Assembly: GCA_045654965.1 (NCBI GenBank)
Contig: JAZOOK010000184.1
Location: 2,111 to 66,110 of the forward strand
Length of the DNA: 64,000 bases
Direction: 5' to 3'
Source: Candidatus Coprovivens sp.
GTDB lineage: Bacteria; Bacillota_I; Bacilli_A; RF39; UBA660
Shown: piece by piece, positions 1,801-44,352 of the stretch
Layout of the letters: every line of letters begins with the position of its first letter
How positions within the stretch are numbered: the stretch's first letter is position 1
The notes under the pieces: model-generated
What the model saw: only the letters and a program-made list of their open reading frames with translations
Database searches by the model: none
Told to the model about the DNA's origin: nothing
Program-made: the position numbers and the translations under genes

Positions 1801-3957
1801 ATGTATGATGATAATGTTACTTACAGAGTAGGAATTAACTGGAAAGACATACTTATAAAATTAATAATGTTAATATTATTCGTTGTTATTCTATTACTGT
1901 TATTTCCTAAAGCTGATTTAGATGTATTTTACGATACTGTCTATTCAAATAATGTAAATACAATGAAGGATGCTGCTAGAAACTATTATACAGTTGATAG
2001 ACTACCTTCAAATGTTGGTGATAAAACATCTATGACATTAAAAGAAATGGTTGATAACCATATGTTAATTAGATTCACTGACAAAGATGGAAAAACTTGT
2101 GATGAAAACAATAGTTATGTTGAAGTTACAAAGGTTTCTAATGATGAATATACATTAAAAGTACAATTAAAATGTGGTGAACAAGAAGATTATATTCTTG
2201 AAACTATAGGATGTACTACAGTATGTTCAAATGGTAATTGTAATACAATTATAAATAATAATACAATTGCTGATGGTTCTCAAAATAATGGTGGAAATAA
2301 TAACACTAATAATGATAACAACAGTAATTGGGATCAAGTAACTGAAGAAGTTAACAAAGGTGGATATACTTATAAGGTTACTTACTATCAACACAGAAAG
2401 AAAATAACTTCTACAAGTGTTGTGTATACTTGTCCTGAAGGATATATTAAAAATGGTACTAAGTGTACTAGTACAACTACTAGTGCTACTATAGATGCTA
2501 CTCCTCATTATAATCCAGATAAAGTTATTACAACTGATGCTAAATATAATGCTGGTGGTTACTATACAGTTTATGCTGATTATATTAAAACACAAACTGG
2601 TATCGATTATAGTTGTCCTGCTGGATATACTTTAAATGGTACTTATTGTATTAAATATACTAGTGCAACTGAAGTTCCTGGGGATGTAAGTTATACTTGT
2701 CCTACAGGTTATACTAAAAATGGTACTAAATGTACTAAGACATATGATGCTACTTATACTGCTGGAGATACAACTTATAGTTGTCCTAATGGTGGTACTT
2801 TAAGTGGTAAGACTTGTACTATAACTCAAGATGCTAGTTCATCAACTGAATATACTTGTCCTTCTGGATATACTAAGAACGGATCAAGTTGTTATAAAGT
2901 TTATAACGCTACATCTAAAACTACTTATAGTTGTCCTAATGGTGGTACTTTAAGTGGTACTAAATGTGTTAAAGAAGGTACTACATATAATGCTGTTGCT
3001 ACAGATACTACTTATGGTAGCTGGGTAGCTAAAGGTACTCAATACTATACTAGTGCTGGTAAAGGATACCAAGGAACTACTTCATGGTTACAATTAAATG
3101 GTATGATTACTGGTGCTGCTTGTGGAAGCCCTTGTGGTGGAAAAGGTACTTGGTATAAATATACTTACTATGAAAGAACAGCTAAAATTGTTTATGGTTG
3201 TCCTAATGGTGGTACATTAAATGGAACTAAGTGTGTTACTTCTGGTTCTTCATATGATGCTACTCCATCAACAACATATAGTTGTCCTAATGGTGGTACT
3301 AGAGATGGTTCTAAATGTACTTTAACTGCTAGTCCTACTACAAGTACTGTTTATAGTTGTCCTTCTGGATATACTAAGAATGGTTCTAAATGTACTAAGA
3401 CTTATACAGCTAGTTCAAATACTGGTGCTGGATCTTATAGTTGTCCTAATGGTGGTACTCTAAATGGTACTAAGTGTACTATTACTAGAGATGCTGATAA
3501 AGTAGTTGGAAATCCAACATATACTTGTCCTGCTGGATATACATATAATAATTCAACTAAAAAATGTGAATATAAGATAACTGCTACTGCAACTGCTGAA
3601 TATTCATATACTTGTCCTGCTGGATATACTAAATCTGGAGAAGGAACAAATACTAAATGTTCTAAAACAGTACAAGGTGAAGGAAACTATTATTGTGAAG
3701 ATGCTAGTGCTGTATTAAATGGTACTAAGTGTGTTAAAACAATAAAAGGTGATATTAGTCATTATACTTGCCCTACTGATTATACTTTAAACGGTACTAA
3801 GTGTTCTAAAACTACTACTGTTACTGTAGATGCTAATAAAGAAACTAAAACATCTACTTCATATAAATATAAATGGAGTAAATATTCTAAACTTGATGGT
3901 TGGGAATTTACTGGTAAAACTAAAGTAGTTACTGAATATAAAGCTGGTCAAAAGTAA
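1801..3957 (+). CDS. N-terminally membrane-anchored Cys-rich tandem-repeat surface protein (novel C-x11-C modules)
   Basis: 718-aa ORF with RBS AAGGAGGG. N-terminal TM (ILIKLIMLILFVVILLLLF), an Asn-rich linker, then ~14 repeats alternating Y[ST]CP[AST]GYTKNG[ST]KC and YSCPNGGTL[NS]GTKC at a ~26-28 aa period. Followed by a rho-independent terminator. Confidence 0.65.
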   Translation: MYDDNVTYRVGINWKDILIKLIMLILFVVILLLLFPKADLDVFYDTVYSNNVNTMKDAARNYYTVDRLPSNVGDKTSMTLKEMVDNHMLIRFTDKDGKTCDENNSYVEVTKVSNDEYTLKVQLKCGEQEDYILETIGCTTVCSNGNCNTIINNNTIADGSQNNGGNNNTNNDNNSNWDQVTEEVNKGGYTYKVTYYQHRKKITSTSVVYTCPEGYIKNGTKCTSTTTSATIDATPHYNPDKVITTDAKYNAGGYYTVYADYIKTQTGIDYSCPAGYTLNGTYCIKYTSATEVPGDVSYTCPTGYTKNGTKCTKTYDATYTAGDTTYSCPNGGTLSGKTCTITQDASSSTEYTCPSGYTKNGSSCYKVYNATSKTTYSCPNGGTLSGTKCVKEGTTYNAVATDTTYGSWVAKGTQYYTSAGKGYQGTTSWLQLNGMITGAACGSPCGGKGTWYKYTYYERTAKIVYGCPNGGTLNGTKCVTSGSSYDATPSTTYSCPNGGTRDGSKCTLTASPTTSTVYSCPSGYTKNGSKCTKTYTASSNTGAGSYSCPNGGTLNGTKCTITRDADKVVGNPTYTCPAGYTYNNSTKKCEYKITATATAEYSYTCPAGYTKSGEGTNTKCSKTVQGEGNYYCEDASAVLNGTKCVKTIKGDISHYTCPTDYTLNGTKCSKTTTVTVDANKETKTSTSYKYKWSKYSKLDGWEFTGKTKVVTEYKAGQK

Positions 3958-11564: not shown

Positions 11565-11785
11565 AAAAAAATCTAAAACCAAGGGACGAAATTATATTCC
11601 GCGGTACCACCCTAATTCTAGAAATCTAGCTCTTTAGTATAGATATAACGCATCTATGTGCGGGTCTAACTCCAACGATGAATTTCATTATATTATTTAT
11701 CTTTAGATGCTTTCAGCCGGTGACATCTAATCTCTAAGTGAAGAACTTAATATAATTACTTGGTTCGTCTTCAACGTCTTACTGC
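11565..11785 (-). promoter_or_regulatory. T-box riboswitch leader (Phe specifier UUC) controlling pheST
   Basis: The minus-strand RNA contains the conserved T-box sequence AAUUAGGGUGGUACCGCGG, followed by a terminator hairpin and U-run just before the pheS RBS. A stem-I AGAGA element and a ...GAAAUUCAUC... specifier candidate are present. The promoter is TTGCAT-17-TAAAAT at plus-strand 11791-11819. Confidence 0.8.
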
Positions 11786-11842: not shown

Positions 11843-12901
11843 TTATCTTGAATATGCGTGTTGAGGTTGTTGTTGATTAACTTTAAATAGTTTTTTTACT
11901 TTTTGTAAACCGTTTTGAACACTCGTTTTTATTCTATTAAATGTATTGTTTCTAACTAGAGTTGTTTTCTTTCTTGATAAAGCTAAAGCTGTTAGTTTAT
12001 TTTCTCCAGCTTGTTGTTTAAATGATTCAACTCTATTAGGATCTGTTCCAAAGTTTCTTTCATATATGTTATATATCATTTTTGATAATTTTGTTTCAAG
12101 TGTAATAGCAGCTATGCTTTCTGGTACATATGATAATTCATATAATTTATCTAAGCCTTGGATTATTTCTTTTAATTCTGTTTGTGTGCAAAATTTACCA
12201 AGTTGTTGTAGAAATGCTGGTAAATTACAAGTAAAGTAGTAATGAGATATTACTTGAGGATTAGGAAAGAATCTTTCTAATAATTTTACTATTCTAACTA
12301 ATCTAGGATATGCTAATATTTGTCCGTTTGTAAATAGTCTTGAATTTAGTAATTCAGTAAATCCTTCGTTTAATCCAGTACAAATAATAGTATCACCTTT
12401 TTGTTGCATAAATCCGTGGTAATGGATGTCTTTTTGTCTATTGTACATATAACTAGCCATATGTAACATTTCATGACCTAGAATTGATTTGGTATTTTTT
12501 GCATATTTAATAATGTTTTCACTACCGTTATAGCAACCAGTTACTCCTGTTTTTTTTATTTCATCACTTTTTATTACTTTTAATGTTGAAAAGTTGTTTC
12601 TAGCAATTCTAATATCTTTACCTATTGATCTTTCCAATTGTTCCATGTATGTTTTTACAATTTCTTTATTGTTATAATCTATAGGTAAATTAGTTGGGAG
12701 TGAATTATAGCATGTTTCTATTTGTCTACTATCTGATATAACAAATCCTTGATCTGCATAATGATTAGAATGTTGTAATCTTACATTTATTTTTTGATTT
12801 GCTTTATATTGTCTGTATAAGGAAACTGTTCCACATGCACATAATATTGGTATTGTTGCTGGAAACATTATCATTACTAATCCTTGTATTGTATTGTTCA
12901 T
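11843..12901 (-). CDS. Membrane-anchored putative gluzincin-type zinc metallopeptidase (HEMLH...NEGFTE)
   Basis: 352 aa; N-terminal hydrophobic segment; HExxH (GHEMLHM) with a downstream GLNEGFTE, the candidate third zinc ligand. No close family recognised by eye. Confidence 0.4.
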   Translation of the reverse strand: MNNTIQGLVMIMFPATIPILCACGTVSLYRQYKANQKINVRLQHSNHYADQGFVISDSRQIETCYNSLPTNLPIDYNNKEIVKTYMEQLERSIGKDIRIARNNFSTLKVIKSDEIKKTGVTGCYNGSENIIKYAKNTKSILGHEMLHMASYMYNRQKDIHYHGFMQQKGDTIICTGLNEGFTELLNSRLFTNGQILAYPRLVRIVKLLERFFPNPQVISHYYFTCNLPAFLQQLGKFCTQTELKEIIQGLDKLYELSYVPESIAAITLETKLSKMIYNIYERNFGTDPNRVESFKQQAGENKLTALALSRKKTTLVRNNTFNRIKTSVQNGLQKVKKLFKVNQQQPQHAYSR

Positions 12902-12983: not shown

Positions 12984-13835
12984 TTATTTTTTACTAAATT
13001 CAACGATTTCTTTATAGATTAATTTTATTTGATTTTGTTCTTCTTCTTTGTAATTTATTAGTAGTTTATCAAGTTTTTCTTCTTCTTTTAATTTAGTATT
13101 TTTTAGTTCATTTTCGAAATTTGATATTACTAATTTAATACTATCTTCATCTGTTAGTCTTTCATATGAATTTATTTGCATTATTCCATATTTTGTTTCT
13201 TTTTTTGTTACAGCTCCTATATAAGCATTAATGCTTCTATATATCTTAGGAGTTTTAAAATCTTCATATATCATTATTGCATAAGTTAAGTTGTTTACTA
13301 AATTGTTTTTGCTTTTTATAATGTTTGAATATTTGTTTTTGAATTTTGCAAATTGCATTATTGTTTTTTCTGTTCTAATTTTAGCTGTTTTTGCTTTTTC
13401 TACGACAACTTTATTTTTAGTTGTTAAATTATATAAATATACAATATATATCAGTATTAGGAACCATATGAAACCTTTTATATCTTCTGGATTTGGTACT
13501 ACTGTTTCTACTTTTCCGATGAAATAGTTGTAGATAAATAAACTCAATCCAATACTAAGTATGTTTTCAATTATGAATGAGAATGCGCTTGATTCTTGTT
13601 GACGATTTATAATATTGGTAATATAGAAGTTTCTAATAAATATTTCAAATATTACTATTAGAAATATATTTTCTTTTACGCTAGGTATTAATGCTGATAC
13701 TACTATTATATAAATAGATGGTATTAACAATTGATTTATCTTTTTATTATCTTTGTTTTGAAAGCAATTTAAAATAATTGTTAATGGTATTGTTAATAGT
13801 ATTTGTAATATGATTGTTGTAAGTGTCATAAGCAT
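12984..13835 (-). CDS. Hypothetical polytopic membrane protein with charged cytoplasmic C-terminal domain
   Basis: 283 aa; 4-5 predicted TM helices in the N-terminal 150 aa; Lys/Glu-rich C-terminus. Confidence 0.45.
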   Translation of the reverse strand: MLMTLTTIILQILLTIPLTIILNCFQNKDNKKINQLLIPSIYIIVVSALIPSVKENIFLIVIFEIFIRNFYITNIINRQQESSAFSFIIENILSIGLSLFIYNYFIGKVETVVPNPEDIKGFIWFLILIYIVYLYNLTTKNKVVVEKAKTAKIRTEKTIMQFAKFKNKYSNIIKSKNNLVNNLTYAIMIYEDFKTPKIYRSINAYIGAVTKKETKYGIMQINSYERLTDEDSIKLVISNFENELKNTKLKEEEKLDKLLINYKEEEQNQIKLIYKEIVEFSKK

Positions 13836-14168: not shown

Positions 14169-16637
14169 CTATTGTACGTCTTTATTTTCTAGACCATTTA
14201 TATATTGGTCGAAATCATTTGCTAAATTTTCACTTGATGTATCATCAGAATTTGTATCATCTGTTTCTACATTGAATATTGTATCAATTGATAATTTTTT
14301 ATTTGTTGATGTAGTTTCAATTTCTTGTGGTGCTGGTGATGCAAACATTGCATCTATATCTAATGGTTGATTATCGTCGTTATCTTCCGATCTTGAATTA
14401 AAGATAATATCATCTATTTGTTGATCCAATGTTTCATCTTCTTCTTCAACTGCTTCTAGTGGCATTTCAACCGGTAAATCTTCTACTGTTGGAGTTAACG
14501 CTCCTGCTGTAAATGTGTCTGCCATATCTGTTGCCCCCTCTGCTGTTTCTGTTGATAAAGATTGTGGTTCAACCACTTCAACTGGAATTTCTTCAACTAT
14601 TGGAGTTGGTTCCTCAACTACTGGTATTTCTACTTCAACTGGTGTTTCTTCTACTACTGGAGTTGGTTCCTCAACTACTGGTATTTCTACTTCAACCGGT
14701 GTTTCTTCTACTACTGGAGTTGGTTCCTCAACTACTGGTATTTCTACTTCAATTGGAGCTTCTTCTACTACTGCAATTGGTTCTTCAATTACAGGTGTTT
14801 CTTCTTCAACCGTATCTTCTAAAGAATTTGTTATTACTTCATTAATAGATTCTTCAGGTTCTTTTATTTTTGATTCTTCTTTTTCTTTAGTAGTCGTTTT
14901 TTCTTTTTCTTCAATATTTTCGATTAATGATTGTAATTCAGCTTCTGCTTCTTGTTGTTTTGCAGATGAAGTAGATTCATCTTCAATATTTGTTTCTACT
15001 TCAGTTTCTTCTATTACCTTAATACCACGTTTTCCATCTTGTTTATTATCTTGATATTCTTCATAATCTTTTTTTACTATATTTGAAGTATTTTCAATTT
15101 GAGTTATATCTATATCTTTTATTAATTTAATATCTAATGCTTCTTCTAGTCGTTTAACTATTTCTAATGGTGTTTCAGGGAATTGGCGACGATGTTTAAT
15201 GTCGATAACTGTTTGTGCTAATTCTTTTAATGTATCTTTATCTTTATTTTTTGTACCTATATCAATTAGACCTGATTTTTTAGAAGTTAATCTGTTTTTT
15301 ATTGTTTCTATTTCTTTTTCGGCTAATTGAATGTTTTGGTATAATCTTTCACACTCATATTTAATAGTTCTTGTTGCTCTAGCTATATCATCTGATTCAT
15401 CTTTTCTAAATGCTGTTGCTATTTTTTCTGCTTCAATGATATCTATTCTTTTTTCATCCATAGCTGCTTTTATACTAGCTTTTGCTCCAACATTCATATC
15501 TGGAACTTCTTTATATGCTTTTTCATATTCACGAAGATCTTTTTTCATTGATTGAATCATTTCTTGGATAGATTGATTTTTAACCTCGTAATTATATTCT
15601 CTATCTCTATCAATAATATCTACTTTAGATTTTAATTCATTTAACTCTTGACTCCATAATGAAATACGTTCATTTAAGAATTCTATTCTAACTTTTTCTG
15701 GTGTGTTCGATTCTAGAATATTATAACTTTTTTGTTCAATTTCATTAGCAAATGTGTCACGAGCTTGTGTAGCTTTTAAAAGTTCTTCTTCCAATGCGTT
15801 ATCCGCTGGAACATTGATATAAGGAACTTTGATAACTGTATTTATTAGACTTAATAAGTAAGGTCTAGCATTTTCAATATCTTCTTTATCGTTTATTACA
15901 TCTTTTATTATTGATTCTATATATTTAGGATCTTTTCTTATTTCTTCTAATCTTATTACTGCTTTTTGAACTTTAGATTCTAGTTCAGCAATTCTTTTAT
16001 CTGTTTTTTCTCTTTTTGATTTATCTATGTAGTTTTCTCTATTCTCTAAGCTTGCTTGTGTTTCTGCTAGTAACTTTTTCTTTTTATCTATTTTATCTTC
16101 AATATTTGCGATTTCATTAGATACTTCAATAATTGCTTGTTGTACTCTTTCGTATGAATAATTGTGTTCTTCTAATTCATCTACCAATTGAGATATCTTT
16201 TCTGTTGTTTCTGCTATTAATCCGTTATAACGATCTATTACTTCATAATCAGTAGCCTCGTTAATACGTTCTTGCATGCTTGCAATGTATTTTTCTTGAC
16301 TTAATTTGTTTTCTCTTAATAAAGAATTACTTGCATATAAATTTTGTTCTTCTTCTTTAAGTTTATTAAGTTCTTTGTTTTTTTCTTTTAAAGTTGTTTT
16401 TAATGTTTGTAAATGTTTTTTTGTAATTATTTCGATGTTTCTGTCCGCCATTTCAGCGCTAGTATCATAACTTTCTTCTTCTGATAATGTTTTTATTTCT
16501 TCGATTTCTAGTTTGTACGCATCTACTTTTTCTATTATTTCTTCTTCTTCAATGCGTAATGATGGACCGTCACTTTTAGAACGACACATTTTTACTAATA
16601 CATCTAAATTCCAAAAAACTTTTAACTTATCGTCCAT
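14169..16637 (-). CDS. Large coiled-coil protein with Pro/Glu/Val-rich tandem repeats and acidic C-terminus
   Basis: 822 aa; heptad-rich, Lys/Glu-rich for ~600 aa; C-terminal third contains 3+ copies of the 19-aa unit VEEPTPVVEETPVEVEIPV; no TM segment. Confidence 0.6.
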   Translation of the reverse strand: MDDKLKVFWNLDVLVKMCRSKSDGPSLRIEEEEIIEKVDAYKLEIEEIKTLSEEESYDTSAEMADRNIEIITKKHLQTLKTTLKEKNKELNKLKEEEQNLYASNSLLRENKLSQEKYIASMQERINEATDYEVIDRYNGLIAETTEKISQLVDELEEHNYSYERVQQAIIEVSNEIANIEDKIDKKKKLLAETQASLENRENYIDKSKREKTDKRIAELESKVQKAVIRLEEIRKDPKYIESIIKDVINDKEDIENARPYLLSLINTVIKVPYINVPADNALEEELLKATQARDTFANEIEQKSYNILESNTPEKVRIEFLNERISLWSQELNELKSKVDIIDRDREYNYEVKNQSIQEMIQSMKKDLREYEKAYKEVPDMNVGAKASIKAAMDEKRIDIIEAEKIATAFRKDESDDIARATRTIKYECERLYQNIQLAEKEIETIKNRLTSKKSGLIDIGTKNKDKDTLKELAQTVIDIKHRRQFPETPLEIVKRLEEALDIKLIKDIDITQIENTSNIVKKDYEEYQDNKQDGKRGIKVIEETEVETNIEDESTSSAKQQEAEAELQSLIENIEEKEKTTTKEKEESKIKEPEESINEVITNSLEDTVEEETPVIEEPIAVVEEAPIEVEIPVVEEPTPVVEETPVEVEIPVVEEPTPVVEETPVEVEIPVVEEPTPIVEEIPVEVVEPQSLSTETAEGATDMADTFTAGALTPTVEDLPVEMPLEAVEEEDETLDQQIDDIIFNSRSEDNDDNQPLDIDAMFASPAPQEIETTSTNKKLSIDTIFNVETDDTNSDDTSSENLANDFDQYINGLENKDVQ
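14601..14771. repeat. Three near-perfect 57-bp tandem repeats inside the coiled-coil protein gene
   Basis: The unit tggagttggttcctcaactactggtatttctacttcaac(t/c)ggtgtttcttctactac starts at 14601, 14658 and 14715, with degenerate flanking copies. Confidence 0.8.
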
Positions 16638-30012: not shown

Positions 30013-30180
30013 TTCTATGTCCTCCCTTCGTCTATATCTGGTATAGACTCGCTCCGTGTGAATTACCCGACATTTTTAAGAAAAAGTTTAACAACTCTTC
30101 CTAGTGTATCGGCAACCTCCCACATCTACGCAGTCATACAGTTTCCATTATAGCACAATTTGCCTTAAAATCAAGCATTT
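30013..30180 (-). promoter_or_regulatory. S10 operon promoter and ~130-nt structured leader
   Basis: Minus strand -35 TTGATT (plus-strand 30169-30174), spacer, extended -10 TGcTATAAT (plus-strand 30147-30152). The GC-richer leader 30013-30140 is a likely L4 autoregulatory leader, inferred by analogy. Confidence 0.55.
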
Positions 30181-30202: not shown

Positions 30203-30240
30203 AAAAAAGCCATAATTTGGCTTTTATTTTTTTTCTAATA
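30203..30240 (-). terminator. Terminator of gpmI
   Basis: AAAGCCaaattatGGCTTTTTTaTTTTTTT on the minus strand, overlapping the gpmI stop. Confidence 0.7.
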
Positions 30241-31729
30241 ATATTTCTGTATTTTTCATCTCTTTTGGTAATGCAATATCCATATATTTTAATAGTGTTG
30301 GGGCAAAACTTGTTAAATCTCCGTTTTTAAGTTTTACTTTATTATCTACTATCATAAATGGTACAGGACTTAATGTATTCTTTGTTATTATGTTATTTTG
30401 TCTATCTACTATCGTGTCAGCTTTACCGTGACTAGATGTTATGATGACTTTATAAAAATTTTCTTCTGCTATTTCTAAGATTTTACCTAAGCAAACATCT
30501 ATGGCTTGTAGGCCATTTATTGTAGCTTGATAATTTCCAGTATGTCCTACTTCATCAGGATTAGCAAAGTTAACTAATATGAAATCATAATCTTTTTCCA
30601 TACATTTTATAACTGTTTTAGCAATAGATAGTGAATCCATTTCTGGTTTCATATCGTAACTATCTACTTTAGGTGATGGAATTATATATCGATCACAGTC
30701 TTTTAGTTCTAATTTTCTTCTACCAGTTAAGTAATATGTCATAGAACTTTCTTTAACACTTTCAAATATATGAGCTTGTGTTAATCCTAAATCTGAAATG
30801 TATTCAGGAAGTGTATGGATTTGTGTATCCATTTCAAAGAAGTAATTTCTATTTAATTCTTTATCTATCTCTAATAAACTATATACTTTTACATCTAAAT
30901 TATGCGCATTAAATTTATCAAAGTCTTTGTTGCATAATGAATTGAGTAATTGAACTTGATTTTCTTTGCTAAAATTCAACAGCATTAATACATCCCCATT
31001 TTCAAGCGGAGCAAATTCTTTACACTTTATCGGCGGTAAATATTCATCCGATAATTTCTTTTCATAGCATTTTTCTATAACTTTATATATATTGTTGGCA
31101 ACTATCCCTCTACCCTCTGTTAGCAAGTCATAGTACATTTTTGTTCTTTTATAATCATTACTTTTATCTAAACCGTAATATCTACCACAAACAGAAGCTA
31201 TTTTTACTTTTATGTTACAAGAAGGTTCTATTTCCTCTAAGTATGATTTTATACCATGGCGATCAGAATCTCTACCATCTGATAAAGCATGTATAAAAAT
31301 ATTATTATCTACCTTAGAGTTTGTTAATTCTTGCAAAAATAATTTTAAATGTTCTATATGAGAAGATACTCCTCCATCTGATAGTAAAGTAACTATATGT
31401 ATTTTTTTATCCGGATGACGCTTTAAGTAATCAGCCATTTCATTATATTTAGTATTGAATTTGTAATCAGATTTTTTAAATGTACTATTTATTTTACTTA
31501 GTTTATTGTTTATTTCTCTTCCAGCTCCAATGATTTCGTGTCCTAATTCACTGTATCCACATTGATTTTCTGGTAGACCAACTGATAAACCACTTGCTTT
31601 TAGTAAACAATGCGGATAGTTGTTCCATATATTTATAAAATTATTCATTCCGGCCATTTTTACTGCGTTACCGTATATGTCTTCACGCATACCAAAACCA
31701 TCTAATATAATTGTTAATATTTTTTTCAT
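30224..31729 (-). CDS. gpmI: 2,3-bisphosphoglycerate-independent phosphoglycerate mutase
   Basis: iPGM N-terminus MKKILTIILDGFGMRED; ~500 aa. Start at MKKIL with RBS AGGAGAA; the track ORF begins 7 codons upstream. Confidence 0.85.
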   Translation of the reverse strand: MKKILTIILDGFGMREDIYGNAVKMAGMNNFINIWNNYPHCLLKASGLSVGLPENQCGYSELGHEIIGAGREINNKLSKINSTFKKSDYKFNTKYNEMADYLKRHPDKKIHIVTLLSDGGVSSHIEHLKLFLQELTNSKVDNNIFIHALSDGRDSDRHGIKSYLEEIEPSCNIKVKIASVCGRYYGLDKSNDYKRTKMYYDLLTEGRGIVANNIYKVIEKCYEKKLSDEYLPPIKCKEFAPLENGDVLMLLNFSKENQVQLLNSLCNKDFDKFNAHNLDVKVYSLLEIDKELNRNYFFEMDTQIHTLPEYISDLGLTQAHIFESVKESSMTYYLTGRRKLELKDCDRYIIPSPKVDSYDMKPEMDSLSIAKTVIKCMEKDYDFILVNFANPDEVGHTGNYQATINGLQAIDVCLGKILEIAEENFYKVIITSSHGKADTIVDRQNNIITKNTLSPVPFMIVDNKVKLKNGDLTSFAPTLLKYMDIALPKEMKNTEILLEKK

Positions 31730-31800
31730 AGGCAATTCTCCTATTATCATAATAGCACATAAAAAAAAGAAATTACAAGAGTTCTTGTAATTTCTTTGTA

Positions 31801-32562
31801 TTAATATGATGTTTTTCCTTCTTCCATCATTATTTTGTCTACTATAATTGCTATGAATTCTCCATTAGTTGGTTTTGTTTTATAATAATCTACACAACTT
31901 TGAAATAATTCATTAGAGTATTCGTAGTTTCCTCTATCCCAACCAGTTTCTATAGCGCTTCTAATAGATCTTTCTATACAACTTTCCTTTTTAGAAAAAG
32001 ATTCTGCTAACATGGGATATATTTCTTTAGTAATAGAAGTCAGTAAAGATGGTTCCATATAGCATTCATAAATTGCTTTTCTTAAATAATGAAATCCATT
32101 TTTATCTGGTGCTATTCCTAATTTCTTTAACATTTCAGCAACTTTATCATATACTGATATCTTTTTATAATTGTATTTTTCTTTTTTATTCTTAATTTCT
32201 TTTAATGAATATATTAGTTCATTTATTTTATAATTCTTTGGTATCACATTAAATAACTGGTAATTGGATGCTGACAAGTTGTAACAATCCAATTTTATAT
32301 TATCTAATATTATGGTTCTAGATAATAAGTATTCGTTATTATAATTAGTTATTAGAGATAACGCATTTTCTCCTTTTAGTGTCCCATCTACTACTATTGC
32401 ATCAACGTCTATATTTGAATCATTAATAATAGCGAGTGCATTATGATAATTTTCAGCAAAATACTTTAAATTTATTTCACTTGTTAATTTACTAATCTCT
32501 TCTTTTAATCTTTGAAAATCTTCTTTACAACAAACTACTAATGTATTAATAGTGTTTTTCAT
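31801..32562 (-). CDS. Spo0A-type regulator: Spo0A C-terminal DNA-binding domain with atypical receiver (Asp-Asp pair replaced by Cys-Cys)
   Basis: The C-terminus GFHYLRKAIYECY...LTSITKEIYPMLAE...CIERSIRSAIETGWDRGN closely matches the Spo0A_C signature (YLREAI...ITKELYP...RVERAIRHAIEVAWSRGN). The N-terminal receiver-like fold has LVVCCKED in place of LIADDN; a candidate phospho-Asp is retained in AIVVDGT. Confidence 0.6.
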   Translation of the reverse strand: MKNTINTLVVCCKEDFQRLKEEISKLTSEINLKYFAENYHNALAIINDSNIDVDAIVVDGTLKGENALSLITNYNNEYLLSRTIILDNIKLDCYNLSASNYQLFNVIPKNYKINELIYSLKEIKNKKEKYNYKKISVYDKVAEMLKKLGIAPDKNGFHYLRKAIYECYMEPSLLTSITKEIYPMLAESFSKKESCIERSIRSAIETGWDRGNYEYSNELFQSCVDYYKTKPTNGEFIAIIVDKIMMEEGKTSY

Positions 32563-32673
32563 ATTGTGTTCTCTTTCTATGTTTTTATTCTAACTATGCT
32601 GAATCGAGTTTATTGTACTATTTTGTCGATACACTTATTTTTTTATAAAAAGAAGTTGATTTAAAACCAACTC

Positions 32674-33864
32674 TTATTCTTTATCTAATATATTGTCTAT
32701 AGCAGGTAAGCCTTCATTAATTATGTATTCAAGTGTAGCTCCTCCACCCGTTGATAGGAATGTAAATCTATCTCCTAGTCCAAAGTGTTTAACTGCACTT
32801 ACTCCGTCTCCGCCACCTACTATTTTTACTGCTTTACTATTAACTATAGTTTCTAGTAGAGCTCTGGTTCCGTTTGCATAACGGTTGTCTTCGTACTTTC
32901 CTGCTGTTCCGTTTACGAAGATTGTTTCTGAATCATCTATAATTTCTTTGAATTTGTTTATACTTTTCATTCCAATGTCATAGATAATATCATCATCAAA
33001 TACTTTATCTATATTTACGTGTTCAATATAATCTTCGTTATATATTCTGCTTATTATAGCATCTATAGGTAATACTATTTTATCTTTATATTGAATCAAT
33101 ATATCTTTTATTTTTGCTAATACATCAGGATCTTTTGTTCTTAGTGAACTTCCGACATTAAATCCCAAAGTCGCTAAACATGAATTTGCAATACCTCCAA
33201 CAAGTATTAAATTATCACATCTTGGTAGTAGTGATTCTATTAATTCTACTTTATCTTCTACTTTTGCTCCACCCATTACAATAGTAAATGGTTTTTTAGC
33301 ATTTAAGATGTATCCATCTAGCATTTCTACTTCTTTTTGAACTAGAAATCCTATACAACTTGGAAGATAATTTGCAATAGCATGTGTTGATGCATGTTTT
33401 CTATGAGCAGAACCAAATGCATCTAAACAATATATATCAGCTAATTCAGCCCAATACATTGCTAATTGTGAATCATTTCCACTTTCTAATTTGTTTGGTA
33501 CATCTTCAAATCTAGTATTTTCTAATACTATAATTTCTCCAGGATTCATCTCTTCTATTTTTCCTGCAAGATACATACTTCTAGGTTGCTTAGCAAAAAT
33601 TACTTTTGTACTAACTAGTTTTTGAAGATGAGAAGCCACTATTGCTAATGAATTTTTCTCTTTATCTTCTTCAGTTTTTACTTTACCAAAGTGAGACATA
33701 ATTATTATTTTTGCACCTTGTTTAACAAGATAATCTATAGTAAATAATGCTGCCACTATTTTGCTATCATCTAATATTTGACCATCTTTTACTGGTACAT
33801 TAAAGTCGCAACGTAATAAGACTCTTTTATTTCTAACATCCATGTCTTGAATTCTTCTTTTCAT
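32674..33864 (-). CDS. pgk: Phosphoglycerate kinase
   Basis: RVLLRCDFNVP N-terminal motif; 396 aa. Start at MKRR with RBS AAGGTGAT. Confidence 0.9.
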   Translation of the reverse strand: MKRRIQDMDVRNKRVLLRCDFNVPVKDGQILDDSKIVAALFTIDYLVKQGAKIIIMSHFGKVKTEEDKEKNSLAIVASHLQKLVSTKVIFAKQPRSMYLAGKIEEMNPGEIIVLENTRFEDVPNKLESGNDSQLAMYWAELADIYCLDAFGSAHRKHASTHAIANYLPSCIGFLVQKEVEMLDGYILNAKKPFTIVMGGAKVEDKVELIESLLPRCDNLILVGGIANSCLATLGFNVGSSLRTKDPDVLAKIKDILIQYKDKIVLPIDAIISRIYNEDYIEHVNIDKVFDDDIIYDIGMKSINKFKEIIDDSETIFVNGTAGKYEDNRYANGTRALLETIVNSKAVKIVGGGDGVSAVKHFGLGDRFTFLSTGGGATLEYIINEGLPAIDNILDKE

Positions 33865-33961
33865 TACCATCACCTTTTCCATTATAAAATAAGTTTTTTA
33901 TCACTTCAATTTGTGAATTTATTGGTTTACATAAAAAGAGTGCCGTTAGACACTCCTTATA

Positions 33962-34975
33962 CTATTTATTAATGTTCATTAGAGTTTTTGCTGTACGCAT
34001 CATTTGAGCTGTATAACCCATTTCGTTATCGTACCAAGCAATAATTTTTACTAATTGTTTTCCTTCAGATTCTAGAACACTAGTAGATAATCCATCAACA
34101 AGAGCACCTGTTTTTTTACCAAGTATGTCACTTGATACTACTGGATCCATTGTAATTTTTAAGGTTTCACTTTGATTATTTGTAAACAATGTGTTTATTT
34201 CTTCTGCTGTAGTATTTCTTGATAACTCTAAAGTTACGTCAATTACTGATCCATCTGGTACTGGTACACGGAATGCATTTCCATCTAATTTACCAAGTAA
34301 ACTTGGGATAACTTTTCCGATAGCACTTGCTGCTCCTGTAGAAGCAGGTACTATATTCATAGCACAAGCACGTCCTCTACGAGCCATAATTCCTTTTTTA
34401 TGAGGAACATCTAATGTAGCTTGGTCATTTGTATAAGCATGAACTGTTGTCATATATCCTTTTACAATACCAATATTATCTTCTATTACTTTTAGTACTG
34501 GAGCTAAGCAGTTAGTTGTACAAGAAGCTGCAGAAATAACTGTTTCTGTTCCATCTAATGTATCTGAGTTTACATTATATACTATAGTTTTCATATCACC
34601 TTTACCAGGAGCTGAAATTATAACTTTTTTAGCACCAGCTGTAATATGCTTTTGAGCATCTTCTAAGCTAGTGAATAGACCTGTACATTCTAGTACTACA
34701 TCTACTCCTAAATCTTTCCATGGTAAGTTTGCAGGATCTTTTTCAGAATATACTTTAATTCTCTTAGTTCCTTTGATAACTATTTCATCACCTTCGAAGT
34801 TAATAATATCTTCATGGAATGAACGATGATTTGTATCGTATTTTAATAAATACGCTAATGTTTCTGCATCTGTTAAGTCATTAATTGCTACACAGTCAAA
34901 ATCTGTTCCTGTGATGATTTCTCTAAATGCTAATCTTCCGATACGGCCGAAACCGTTAATTGCTACTTTTATCAT
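33962..34975 (-). CDS. gap: Glyceraldehyde-3-phosphate dehydrogenase
   Basis: MIKVAINGFGRIGR Rossmann N-terminus; catalytic SCTTNC. Confidence 0.9.
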   Translation of the reverse strand: MIKVAINGFGRIGRLAFREIITGTDFDCVAINDLTDAETLAYLLKYDTNHRSFHEDIINFEGDEIVIKGTKRIKVYSEKDPANLPWKDLGVDVVLECTGLFTSLEDAQKHITAGAKKVIISAPGKGDMKTIVYNVNSDTLDGTETVISAASCTTNCLAPVLKVIEDNIGIVKGYMTTVHAYTNDQATLDVPHKKGIMARRGRACAMNIVPASTGAASAIGKVIPSLLGKLDGNAFRVPVPDGSVIDVTLELSRNTTAEEINTLFTNNQSETLKITMDPVVSSDILGKKTGALVDGLSTSVLESEGKQLVKIIAWYDNEMGYTAQMMRTAKTLMNINK

Positions 34976-34991
34976 TTATATTCCTCTTTTC

Positions 34992-36662
34992 TTATTCGTA
35001 ATGTTCGAAAACACTTTTTCCGATAAATTCTCTTAATACTGACTCGTCACATACATAGTCAGATGGTATTGGATAGAATCCTCTTAAATTATTAATTAAT
35101 CTTCTAGCTTCATTATATGCTGGAGAATTACTTTTTACTGAGTATAGTAATGGTTCTACGAATACTTTAAGTACTCCAACTTCATATGCTAAAGATGTGT
35201 TAATTATCTTATCTATATCATTAATGAATGGATAAATATGTTTTTCTTCTCCTGAACGAACTGTATTCCAATATGTAATTGTTTGTCCCACATCAGTTGC
35301 TCTCATTCTATTATCTCTTACTATTCTACGCATTAAACGTAAATCTGTTGAAGATACATAGTTATGTCTATCTACGTTAAGAGATATGAATGGACTTAGA
35401 TATACTTTATATTTTAAGTCTTTTTCTAAATCTGGAGTCATAGCATCATTTATACTATGTAGACCTTCCATTAATATAATAGCGTTTTCTCCTAATTTAA
35501 CAGGATCATGGTCATATTTCTTTTTACCAGCTACGAAGTCATATTCTGGAATAGTAACTTTCTTTCCTGCTAATAATTCTTTTAATTGTTTATTTAATAA
35601 TTTTAGATCTAATGCTTCTAAACATTCGAAATCATAATTTCCTTCTGCATCTCTAGGTGAATCTACTAAATCTTTGAAATAGTTATCTACTGATATTAGT
35701 AATACTTCTTGACCTCTACTTCTTAATTGAAGAGCTATTTTCTTAGTTGTTGTAGTTTTTCCTGATGAAGATGGTCCTGCTATAAGAATGTATCTTGATT
35801 TTCTCTTTATAATATCATCAGCTAATTCACGAATTTTATTTTCATAATTCATTTCGATTGTTTTTATTAGATTTTCTATTTTACAATCAGATACTACTTT
35901 ATTTAAATCTGATAAATATGGTATTCCTAAATCTTTTAACCATTTTTTACTTTCGTTGAAGCATTTGATTACTCCTTGATAGTGGATATATTCTGGTACT
36001 TTAAATTTAGTTGTTGGAGATGGGAATAGTAATACTAATTTATTATCTCCTAAGAATACTAAATCATAATTTTTTAAACATCCTGTAGAATATGGCATAT
36101 CTGAATAGAAATAGTTAATATAATTACGTAGTTTATGAACTGTTACTATTTTATTTGTTACGTTGTGGATATTTTGAGCTTTTTCCACAGCTTTCACTTT
36201 ATTATAGTAGTTGATAGCTTCTTTCTTTTCTGCATTTAATTCATAAATACGTTCATCATTTGCTATTATTTCATTCATTTTTGTTTTTAATTTTTTTGCA
36301 TCATTTAAAGTGAATTTCTTTTCACTTTGGATTGTCATATGGATACCATTAGCTATTGAGTGATCCATTGTTACTTCATATCCTTCTCCAAATGCTTCTT
36401 TTAATGCAACTTCTACAACAAATTCTAATCCATATTTATTCATTTTATATCCATTAGTTGTTGTTGCATCAATGAATTCAATTGTCATTGCTCTAGTTAT
36501 TTTTGTTTCCATAGGAACTGTTTCGTTGTCTATTTCAGCACCAACTATGCAATTTTTCATCTTTGGTTGATATGTTTTACTTAGTTCATAGATAGTAGTA
36601 CCTTTTTCTACTTCTACAACTGTTCCATCATTTAATGTTACATTTGCTCTATTACTTGCCAT
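34992..36662 (-). CDS. TGS-domain / uridine-kinase-family (P-loop NTP kinase) fusion protein
   Basis: N-terminal ThrRS-like TGS (VTLNDGTVVEVEKGTTIYEL); central Walker A IAGPSSSGKTTT, typical of the Udk/PRK family. Confidence 0.65.
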   Translation of the reverse strand: MASNRANVTLNDGTVVEVEKGTTIYELSKTYQPKMKNCIVGAEIDNETVPMETKITRAMTIEFIDATTTNGYKMNKYGLEFVVEVALKEAFGEGYEVTMDHSIANGIHMTIQSEKKFTLNDAKKLKTKMNEIIANDERIYELNAEKKEAINYYNKVKAVEKAQNIHNVTNKIVTVHKLRNYINYFYSDMPYSTGCLKNYDLVFLGDNKLVLLFPSPTTKFKVPEYIHYQGVIKCFNESKKWLKDLGIPYLSDLNKVVSDCKIENLIKTIEMNYENKIRELADDIIKRKSRYILIAGPSSSGKTTTTKKIALQLRSRGQEVLLISVDNYFKDLVDSPRDAEGNYDFECLEALDLKLLNKQLKELLAGKKVTIPEYDFVAGKKKYDHDPVKLGENAIILMEGLHSINDAMTPDLEKDLKYKVYLSPFISLNVDRHNYVSSTDLRLMRRIVRDNRMRATDVGQTITYWNTVRSGEEKHIYPFINDIDKIINTSLAYEVGVLKVFVEPLLYSVKSNSPAYNEARRLINNLRGFYPIPSDYVCDESVLREFIGKSVFEHYE

Positions 36663-43924: not shown

Positions 43925-43992
43925 ACTCTCACCTATTATGAATTATACTATAAAATTATTAGTTTGCATATATTGTGATAGAGGTGAAAAAT

Positions 43993-44352
43993 ATGAATGG
44001 TAATTACTATCAAAATCCTAAATTTCCTACTATAGATAATTCTGATAATAATTTTCAATTTGAGGAAGGTTATCAAGCTGGTACTATGGCAGATATTCCT
44101 ATGCAACAAAGTTATATTGAAAATATATTAAGAAGTAATAAAGGTAAAAAAGTAAAGATTTATACCAGTTTTCCTGATTCTAACGAATGGAAAGATAAAG
44201 TTTTTGAAGGAACTGTTGAACAAGCTGGCAGAGATCATATTGTATTAAGAGATACTAGAGATGGACGTTGGTATTTAATATTAATGATTTATCTTGATTA
44301 TGTGGAATTTGAAGAAAAAATTAATTACAATGATCCAAATATATTTGATTAA
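43993..44352 (+). CDS. GerQ/YwdL-like spore coat protein family
   Basis: SYIENILR.NKGKKVKIYTSF.DS.EWKDKVF.G.VE.AGRDHIVL.D...G.WYL.L..YLDYVEF.E.INY matches the Spore_GerQ pattern by recollection. Start at MNGNYY with RBS GAGGTG. Confidence 0.45.
   Translation: MNGNYYQNPKFPTIDNSDNNFQFEEGYQAGTMADIPMQQSYIENILRSNKGKKVKIYTSFPDSNEWKDKVFEGTVEQAGRDHIVLRDTRDGRWYLILMIYLDYVEFEEKINYNDPNIFD

Follow-up and report, generated by a model that had tools for sequence, protein, structure and literature searches.

Phosphorylated Spo0A (Spo0A~P) is regarded as the trigger of endospore formation wherever it occurs, and studies of gut metagenomes take the presence of spo0A alone as a genomic marker of sporulation potential (PMC11536998, PMC10868615). 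A gene in a 64-kb stretch of DNA from Candidatus Coprovivens sp. (contig JAZOOK010000184.1; the whole of this stretch is called the window here) raises the question of what becomes of such a regulator when two cysteines stand where its receiver domain should carry an acidic pair, and of why it lies among genes of glycolysis. We found that the gene is the positional ortholog of spo0A in its clade, that it joins an almost unchanged Spo0A effector domain to a pseudo-receiver, and that its location among glycolytic genes is older than the loss of the active site. Taking the evidence together, we consider it fairly probable that this is the spo0A of a group of uncultured, small-genome gut Bacilli, that its degenerate receiver works independently of aspartate phosphorylation, and that the gene is autoregulated.

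A Spo0A Effector Domain Joined to a Pseudo-Receiver

The C-terminal part of the 253-residue protein had been taken for a Spo0A DNA-binding domain when the sequence was first annotated, and every comparison agreed. Pfam PF08769 (Spo0A_C, the DNA-binding and transcription-activation domain) matched residues 141–244 from end to end (model positions 1–104 of 104; E 2.1e-32; 111.7 bits against a cutoff of 25), and the same half matched the solved Spo0A DNA-binding domains 1lq1 and 1fc3 (E 1e-22). A Foldseek search of the PDB with an AlphaFold2 model returned Spo0A-C with target TM-scores of 0.85–0.92 and root-mean-square deviations of 1.3–2.0 Å. The recognition-helix motif ERxIRxAIE..W.RG and the KPTN.EFI motif were both kept, and identity to the C-terminal domains of orthologs was 91–93% in most of the related loci L005–L017 and L022, and 76–85% in L018–L020. 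The ratio of nonsynonymous to synonymous substitution rates (dN/dS), taken from the closest ortholog pairs alone, with dS near saturation (about 1) in most of the ortholog pairs overall, was 0.005–0.02 for this domain and 0.05–0.09 for the N-terminal one. The DNA-binding half is therefore an almost unchanged Spo0A effector domain. Against the full-length model TIGR02875 (spore_0_A), which aligned to residues 5–247, the protein scored 118.1 bits, below the equivalog cutoff of 200. An identical protein is recorded on other contigs with the same neighboring genes, and the NCBI name of one close homolog is just “Spo0A C-terminal domain-containing protein”.

The N-terminal residues 1–135 gave no Pfam match even at E ≤ 10, PF00072 (Response_reg) included, in a run in which the N-termini of two sister Spo0A proteins, P0398 and P0450, scored 50.5 and 57.2 bits on Response_reg as positive controls. 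In the AlphaFold2 model, which was built on 120 homologs and had a mean predicted local distance difference test (pLDDT) score of 85.9, residues 5–126 form a (beta-alpha)5 fold that is followed by the helical Spo0A_C domain. The strands of the model run over residues 5–10, 30–36, 55–59, 83–86 and 105–107 and the helices over residues 13–26, 39–46, 67–82, 91–94 and 113–126. Foldseek matched this half to the response-regulator receivers of PorX, EutV, FixJ and NarL in the PDB (E 1e-5 to 1e-3), and profile-profile comparison in hhalign between the N-termini of the window protein’s family and canonical Spo0A receivers gave a probability of 95% (E 3.7e-8).

The catalytic residues of this fold are largely gone. 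The codons tta gta gtt tgt tgt aaa gaa gat encode LVVCCKED, and both hhalign and MAFFT placed Cys11 and Cys12 on the two metal-binding acidic residues (DD1 and DD2), so that the first-pass annotation, which had read Cys-Cys in the place of the acidic pair of receivers from these same letters, was right on this point. Asp59 was aligned to Asp56 of Spo0A by phmmer against 3b2n, and MAFFT and hhalign agreed on it as the equivalent of the phospho-acceptor. The Thr/Ser position at the end of beta4 is Asp87 in the MAFFT alignment and falls inside a five-residue deletion in that of hhalign, Lys109 lies no more than one residue from the canonical Lys (in the model it is displaced by one position relative to strand beta5), and the Pro at D+4 and the Gly at D+8 are both lost. 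Alignment to the Spo0A receiver pocket, which the first-pass annotation had proposed as a check, thus returned C11, C12, D59, D87 or a deletion, and a displaced K109 in place of the canonical quintet (DD1, DD2, D, T/S, K).

Acidic residues stand at DD1 and DD2 in 100% of true receivers, and a pseudo-receiver is defined by a (beta-alpha)5 fold from which at least one phosphotransfer residue has been lost (Bourret et al., 2025; PMC12632262). As neither position is acidic in the window protein, and the fold is that of a receiver, its N-terminal domain is a pseudo-receiver by this definition; the retention of Asp59 sets it apart from the aspartate-less receivers. With the dN/dS ratio given above, the domain is a receiver fold under purifying selection and is not decaying.

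The Gene Holds the Position of spo0A in Its Clade

Our comparisons covered the 64-kb window and flanks of up to 10 kb on related contigs. The synteny set consisted of 21 related loci with a conserved pgk-side context (L005–L025); L026, a Ruminococcus match to the C-terminal domain, was left out as it was not syntenic. Gene order in all 21 loci was (whiA)-PRK-like-gap-pgk-(tpiA)-X-gpmI-rpsJ, where X is the counterpart of the window gene and genes in brackets are not present throughout. In the window the gene is embedded in a glycolytic cluster, physically between pgk and gpmI, as had been noted from the start.

The nearest relative with a recognizable receiver, P0152, belongs to a family whose members carry both PF00072 and PF08769 (exhaustive search). 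Three members of this family were looked up (P0398, P0405, and P0450), and all of them are encoded directly upstream of gpmI-rpsJ. At the P0398 locus the order is PRK-like, gap, an open reading frame (ORF), pgk, spo0A, gpmI, rpsJ; the P0405 locus has the same order with an HTH_3 gene before spo0A; and at the P0450 locus an ABC transporter takes the place of pgk upstream, followed by spo0A-gpmI-rpsJ. The NCBI name of P0450 is “sporulation transcription factor Spo0A [Bacilli bacterium]”. The window gene shares its slot with the canonical Spo0A of sister lineages, which makes it the positional counterpart of the clade’s ordinary spo0A, an ortholog and not a new paralog. Its place in the glycolytic cluster is ancestral synteny that predates the loss of the active site, and it is not a new metabolic circuit; the proposal that a sporulation regulator had here been hard-wired into central carbon metabolism is not supported, as canonical sister proteins occupy the very same position. 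It had also been allowed that the gene might turn out to be the only, canonical spo0A of a sporulating relative. This holds in so far as the gene is the positional ortholog and a spore-coat gene is kept in the window (see below), but the receiver is not canonical.

The order pgk-tpiA-spo0A-gpmI was found in 14 of the 21 related loci (L005–L014, L016, L017, L022, and L024), whereas tpiA is missing from the slot between pgk and spo0A in the window and in L015, L018–L021, L023, and L025. The gene had been thought to fill the place of tpiA, but these 14 loci carry the two genes side by side: spo0A sits beside tpiA and does not replace it, and tpiA has been lost or moved from the slot in the lineage of the window. 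Searches with tblastn (B. subtilis queries) did not find tpiA, eno or cggR anywhere in the 64 kb. Loss of triose-phosphate isomerase, if true, would be notable in itself.

Loss of Receiver Residues Across the Clade

Among 119 representatives of the sister family (that of P0152; loci L027–L032), the full DD-D-T/S-K quintet was kept in only 13. DD2 was non-acidic in 68 of them and the phospho-acceptor Asp was replaced by Ser or Asn in 70, a loss that is visible by eye in P0405 (VVLSMVLPSLDG) and P0450 (LLLNPILPKVDG). At one further locus (L024, 5983–6348, from a Bacilli metagenome-assembled genome, MAG), the slot between tpiA and gpmI encodes a stand-alone Spo0A_C protein of 121 residues with no receiver. 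The clade as a whole is moving away from phosphorylation of the Asp, and the window protein stands at an intermediate to late point on this path.

Residue conservation in the close family was counted over the 120 closest cluster representatives (64–100% identity), 116 of which are full-length. The pair at positions 11–12 was CS in 94, CC in 21 and CG in one, and DD1 and DD2 were non-acidic in every family member. In species-level representatives from more distant loci, Cys11 was replaced by Gly (L020) or Ser (L021, L023, and L025). Asp59 was present in 119 of the 120, and also in L021, L023, and L025; Lys109 was present in 115 of the 120 and was Thr, His or Ser in more distant orthologs. Asp59, Thr83, Asp87-Asn88 and Cys93-Tyr94-Asn95 (the last three in alpha4) were invariant in all full-length orthologs, and D54, D59, T83, D87, N88, C93, Y94 and N95 were invariant or nearly so. 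The motif IIDN..L.CYN, which spans residues 85–95 (beta4-alpha4), was invariant.

Putative Control Elements Around the Gene

The consensus 0A box is TGTCGAA, in which Spo0A contacts G2, C4, and G5 within the TGTCG core (PMC3485338). Upstream of the window gene we found a box-like heptamer in reverse orientation (Table 1), whose CGACA core, the reverse complement of TGTCG, was at least 90% conserved in an upstream alignment of 20 loci with a mean column identity of 61%. The motif NTCGACA occurred at −55 to −77 in 15 of 18 sequences (the window and 14 of 17 close orthologs), and it was also found upstream of canonical spo0A in L027 and L029. In C. difficile the consensus box of spo0A lies at −75 (PMC3485338), compared with about 70 nt upstream in the window gene. 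The longer motif TCGACAWAAW was present in a single copy in the window, at the spo0A upstream box.

Outside this position there was no sign of a local 0A regulon in the window. TGTCGAA was not enriched (three sites seen, 3.7 expected), with none near the glycolytic promoters, and neither was TCGACA (seven seen, 10.6 expected). Only three of 21 TGTCGNN sites in the window were intergenic (one at the edge of the window, one in the leader of S10 and one ahead of spo0A), and no 0A-like box was found upstream of gap, gpmI or rpsJ.

A −10-like hexamer between the box and the start codon may belong to a promoter of the gene’s own, as hexamers resembling TAnAAT line up with it in the upstream regions of the orthologs. 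A promoter consensus scan was uninformative in this AT-rich window (46 sites against 48 expected), and the elements described here were picked by their conservation between loci. The conserved ACATAAT and TAnAAT elements of the upstream region were also compared by eye with sigma-factor consensus sequences, and no convincing fit was obtained. Directly behind the stop codon lies an intrinsic terminator with a fold of −14.7 kcal/mol (z −6.0; none of 200 shuffles was as good). Of 24 other loci, at least 20 have a hairpin and T-run directly after the stop codon; the stem sequence is shared by about 18, and the loops vary.

The sequence of the terminator stem (GAAATTACAAG / CTTGTAATTTC) is itself conserved in about 18 related loci, beyond what a plain terminator needs, and the stem may also be a protein-binding palindrome. 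The terminator is followed by the TGnTATTAT element of gpmI and then by the gpmI ribosome-binding site. The start of the gpmI ORF called mechanically (ATG 31750) overlaps TGnTATTAT; the likely start is ATG 31729, after AGGAGAA, and gpmI called as 501 residues on another contig corresponds to a start at 31729.

A conserved upstream block and a strong terminator of its own argue against simple co-regulation of the gene with glycolysis. As far as the flanking elements allow us to judge, spo0A looks like an autonomous unit that is probably autoregulated.

Comparison With Known Spo0A Proteins and Pseudo-Receivers

In its layout, a receiver fold followed by Spo0A_C, the window protein is the same as Spo0A of Bacillus subtilis, Geobacillus stearothermophilus and Clostridioides difficile. 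It differs from canonical Spo0A in having Cys-Cys or Cys-Ser for the acidic pair, in the loss of Thr/Ser, in lacking a PF00072 match, and in its TIGR02875 score (118 against 200 bits). Because it falls below the equivalog cutoff and has not kept the catalytic quintet it is not a canonical Spo0A, although its locus and its effector domain leave no doubt that it is the ortholog of spo0A. The position between pgk or tpiA and gpmI is unlike that in Bacillus, where spo0A usually lies next to spoIVB. Of the genes of the Firmicute gapA glycolytic operon (cggR-gapA-pgk-tpiA-pgm-eno), cggR and eno were not found in the window.

The sister Spo0A proteins (the family of P0152, P0398, P0405, and P0450) lie in the same slot and show the same trend of erosion, at an overall identity of 27–40%. 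They still match Response_reg (50–57 bits) and keep DD1 and Lys, whereas the window protein has no such match; on the other hand, many of them have lost the phospho-Asp that the window protein keeps as Asp59.

At its input end the protein is more like GlnR, RamR, HP1043, and ChxR, which act without Asp phosphorylation and also combine a receiver fold missing catalytic residues with a DNA-binding output, of the OmpR/PhoB or NarL type in these known pseudo-receiver regulators and of the Spo0A_C type here. GlnR and RamR use their retained Asp to form dimers and not for phosphorylation (Bourret et al., 2025; PMC12632262), and by analogy Asp59 may have a similar role. RitR of Streptococcus pneumoniae and HP1021, Cj1608, and Abu0127 are pseudo-receivers with Cys-controlled dimerization and so provide a precedent for a thiol-based input, but their sensing Cys is conserved and lies in the linker or the alpha1-beta2 loop, whereas the Cys at the DD position of the window protein is not conserved. 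The isolated Spo0A DNA-binding domain, a constitutively active fragment, binds legitimate targets without phosphorylation (PMC3485338), and the 121-residue protein of L024 is alike. Unlike this fragment, the window protein keeps a constrained N-terminal domain (dN/dS 0.05–0.09 under the limits given above), which therefore still has a function. The protein is thus like Spo0A at its output end and like atypical pseudo-receiver regulators at its input end.

A search of the literature, limited in extent and no proof of absence, yielded no description of a degenerate or pseudo-receiver Spo0A. Galperin’s survey records Spo0A presence and paralogs, and a search of its text by terms found nothing on degenerate receivers. 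Among metagenomic sequences we also saw proteins of 350–450 residues with three or four tandem Spo0A_C domains (P0130, P0131, P0133, P0134, P0139, P0141, and others), an architecture that is not discussed in the sources cited here.

A Spore-Coat Gene in the Window and Predicted Sporulation in Its Lineage

The window carries gerQ, a spore-coat gene, whose product scored 111.4 bits on TIGR02728, above the equivalog cutoff of 88.95. No sporulation gene other than gerQ was recognized in the 64 kb. The longest contigs carrying GerQ homologs (63–78% identity) and those carrying spo0A orthologs were of equal size (543,316, 524,094, 618,266, 178,221, 151,180, and 27,697 bp). An intact gerQ, with homologs on contigs that match those of the spo0A orthologs, means that the lineage keeps at least this sporulation-specific gene under selection, and suggests that it still has sporulation genes.

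The closest genomes are MAGs of uncultured Bacilli from rabbit, mouse, chicken and human gut, Candidatus Coprovivens among them. Candidatus Coprovivens is UBA11963 in GTDB, of the order RF39 and the family CAG-1000 (PMC8035907). The order RF39 has been predicted to be spore-forming, with unusual regulation, and its genomes have been reported to carry spoIIGA, spoIIM, spoIIP, spoIIQ, and spoIIIAH (PMC10868615). That study does not treat the family CAG-1000 by name, and nothing on CAG-1000, UBA11963 or spo0A was found in its supplements.

How the Regulator May Work

If the preferred reading, that of an autoregulated spo0A freed from Asp phosphorylation, is right, Asp59 would not be phosphorylated efficiently without its metal ligands, and the pseudo-receiver would act as a module for dimerization and gating that is either constitutive or controlled by a partner or ligand. 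On this view the role of Asp59 and of the IIDN..L.CYN motif would lie in structure or in an interface and not in catalysis. Activity would be set mainly by the amount of protein, that is by expression level and autoregulation, for which the reverse 0A box about 68 nt before the ATG may provide the site; spo0A of Bacillus and of C. difficile is likewise autoregulated. Transcription running on from pgk or tpiA could contribute a basal level that is linked to growth.

Several observations weigh against this reading. Asp59 and Lys109 are strongly conserved in the close family, phosphotransfer can survive some substitutions at DD, T or K (Bourret et al., 2025; PMC12632262), and weak phosphorylation of Asp59 may occur. 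The equivalences of the Thr and Lys positions differ by one to five residues among MAFFT, hhalign and the strand boundaries of the AlphaFold2 model. The 0A-like box of the window is a lone heptamer with one mismatch (TGTCGAT); it was singled out by its conservation, and may serve another factor or be part of a promoter. As for transcriptional autonomy, pgk is followed by a weak hairpin (−6.8 kcal/mol, z −1.2), and in loci that carry tpiA the box follows closely after the end of tpiA with no terminator-like hairpin evident between them, so that read-through, and co-transcription with the glycolytic genes, is possible. A second, canonical spo0A, kinases, or Spo0F and Spo0B may be encoded elsewhere in the genome. 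Finally, we know of no RF39 member that has been seen to sporulate.

The conservation of Asp59 in 119 of 120 close representatives and in all distant orthologs, and of Lys109 in 115 of 120, could be explained if the domain were an inefficient but working phospho-receiver, with Asp59 taking its phosphate from an orphan histidine kinase or a small-molecule donor and with Asp54, Asp87, Glu14/Asp15 or Cys/Ser side chains standing in for metal binding. Asp87 is invariant beside the active-site region, and pseudo-receivers that keep the Asp may still work as response regulators, at lower efficiency (Bourret et al., 2025; PMC12632262). We nonetheless regard this explanation as unlikely. Both metal-ligand positions are non-acidic in every family member, against 100% acidic in true receivers (PMC12632262), Thr/Ser, D+4 Pro and D+8 Gly are lost, and Lys109 gives way to Thr, His or Ser in more distant orthologs; in addition, the Asp itself has been lost in 70 of 119 sister-family proteins and the whole receiver has been dropped in L024. 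Taken together, the lost ligands, the loss of Thr/Ser, the drift of Lys, the loss of Asp in sister proteins and the L024 protein speak for a clade that has given up its dependence on Asp phosphorylation. A relict or repurposed regulator, in a lineage that no longer sporulates, might instead control vegetative genes, possibly the adjacent glycolytic or ribosomal ones. In Galperin’s set, Spo0A is still encoded by 40 of 102 non-spore-forming Firmicutes; the genomes concerned here are small, throughout the clade the gene keeps its tight linkage to gap-pgk-gpmI-rpsJ, and gerQ is the sole sporulation gene recognized in the 64 kb. However, gerQ is intact, above its equivalog cutoff and conserved in the lineage, it is a spore-coat gene without a known vegetative role, the RF39 genomes were reported with the spoII and spoIII genes named above (PMC10868615), and gap, gpmI and rpsJ have no 0A-like box upstream in the window, which makes this second explanation very unlikely.

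A thiol redox sensor, built from Cys11-Cys12 or from other Cys residues and answering oxidation in place of phosphorylation, is the least probable of these and in our judgment has hardly any chance of being correct. It can appeal to Cys11, which is present in all 116 full-length close representatives, to Cys93, Cys167, Cys195, and Cys223, which are invariant in the same 116, and to the retention of Cys93 (alpha4) even in L021, L023, and L025; redox-controlled atypical regulators such as RitR, HP1021, and Cj1608 exist (PMC12632262), and oxygen would be a sensible trigger in a host cell that is presumably anaerobic. Yet so many residues are invariant in such a close set that an invariant Cys weighs little, Cys195 and Cys223 are gone in L023 and L025, and L020 (Gly) and L021, L023, and L025 (Ser) have replaced Cys11 while keeping the other conserved motifs of the domain. 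The pair is C-S in 94 of 116, which leaves no conserved dithiol, and the conserved dimerizing Cys by which redox regulators are recognized was not found in the Cys11/Cys12 pair. Because the pair is mostly CS and Cys11 varies in distant orthologs, a dithiol sensor at the DD position seems unlikely from the alignments. The first-pass annotation had offered a phosphorylation-independent or redox-sensing (thiol) receiver; with the acidic pair gone, a phosphorylation-independent input is plausible, and it is the thiol half of that proposal that the lack of conservation of the Cys pair undermines. In sum, the evidence does not support a redox pocket made of Cys-Cys, a gene that stands in for tpiA, or the wiring of a sporulation regulator to glycolysis.

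Other Features of the Window

The coordinates of the gene, its elements and its neighbors are collected in Table 1. The window has a G+C content of 25–35%, and the rest of it is housekeeping: the S10/spc/alpha ribosomal operons, pheST, whiA, yvcK, ftsEX, Mur ligases, dnaB, parAB, and ftsH. A T-box leader lies upstream of pheS (11579–11783, minus strand; 95.8 bits) and an S10-Clostridia ribosomal leader upstream of rpsJ (30028–30136, minus strand; 35.6 bits, just above gathering). Five large ORFs of 283–822 residues had no Pfam or NCBIfam match (275–1768 and 1801–3957 on the plus strand; 11843–12901, 12984–13835, and 14169–16637 on the minus strand), and the first two of them lie in a segment of GC skew opposite to that of the remaining window.

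At 34992–36662 (minus strand) a protein of 556 residues is encoded, with an N-terminal TGS-like domain and a uridine-kinase/PRK-type P-loop domain that is well below the udk equivalog cutoff. This gene heads the gap-pgk cluster in nearly all related loci; in Bacillus, cggR stands at the head of the gap-pgk cluster. In some relatives the cluster contains additional ORFs (L025, 3776–4564; L027, 4028–4648; L029, 3321–3836 and 5287–5859), namely ORFs of 171–262 residues without a recognized family between gap and pgk and, in L029, an HTH_3 (XRE-type) regulator between pgk and spo0A.

Table 1. Positions in the window of the spo0A ortholog, its domains and control elements, and selected other genes.
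Feature	Position	Strand	Basis
spo0A ortholog, coding sequence (253 aa)	31801..32562	minus	ORF list
N-terminal pseudo-receiver domain, residues 1–130	32173..32562	minus	AlphaFold2 fold, Foldseek, hhalign
Codons Cys11-Cys12 (receiver DD1, DD2 positions)	32527..32532	minus	DNA sequence; alignments
Codon Asp59 (phospho-acceptor equivalent)	32386..32388	minus	phmmer against 3b2n, MAFFT, hhalign
Spo0A_C DNA-binding/transcription-activation domain, residues 141–244	31831..32142	minus	Pfam PF08769
0A-box-like heptamer ATCGACA (opposite strand TGTCGAT), starts 68 nt upstream of ATG	32624..32630	minus	sequence and conservation
−10-like hexamer TAGAAT, 25–30 nt upstream of ATG, putative own promoter	32587..32592	minus	sequence and conservation
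Intrinsic terminator, 14-bp hairpin and U8, starting 3 nt after the stop codon	31758..31797	minus	terminator scan
Extended −10-like element TGTGCTATTAT for gpmI (TGnTATTAT)	31749..31759	minus	kept in nearly all orthologous loci
gpmI (cofactor-independent phosphoglycerate mutase), downstream neighbor	30224..31729	minus	Pfam Metalloenzyme and iPGM_N
pgk, upstream neighbor	32674..33882	minus	Pfam PGK, E 5.6e-122
gap (glyceraldehyde-3-phosphate dehydrogenase)	33962..34975	minus	Pfam Gp_dh_N and Gp_dh_C
gerQ, spore-coat gene	43975..44352	plus	Pfam Spore_GerQ, E 4.3e-34

Implications for Sporulation in Gut Bacilli

In this clade of abundant, uncultured, small-genome gut Bacilli the Spo0A receiver forms a series from canonical, through aspartate-less and unrecognizable (as in the window), to absent, and throughout the series the DNA-binding domain and at least one spore-coat gene stay under selection. 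That the Spo0A of the clade sheds its phosphorylation chemistry while spore genes are kept is a modest but genuine surprise. Should these bacteria form spores, the onset must be under a control that differs from all models studied so far, which bears on the transmission of gut commensals and on the biology of pseudo-receivers, a class with mostly unexplained mechanisms (PMC12632262). A practical consequence is that TIGR02875 equivalog models and screens based on KEGG Orthology (KO) may miss or mislabel such spo0A genes.

A bolder proposal, which we hold to be decidedly unlikely, is that in RF39 and its relatives sporulation is no longer decided by Asp phosphorylation of Spo0A, but by another input to the pseudo-receiver or by dosage alone, and that the decision is tied to carbon flux or oxygen. 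The other input might be a metabolite, a protein partner, or redox sensed through the universally conserved Cys93 on the alpha4 face, and dosage might be set by the autoregulatory 0A box together with read-through from the glycolytic genes. If this were true, it would be the first natural Spo0A switch free of phosphorelay and kinase.

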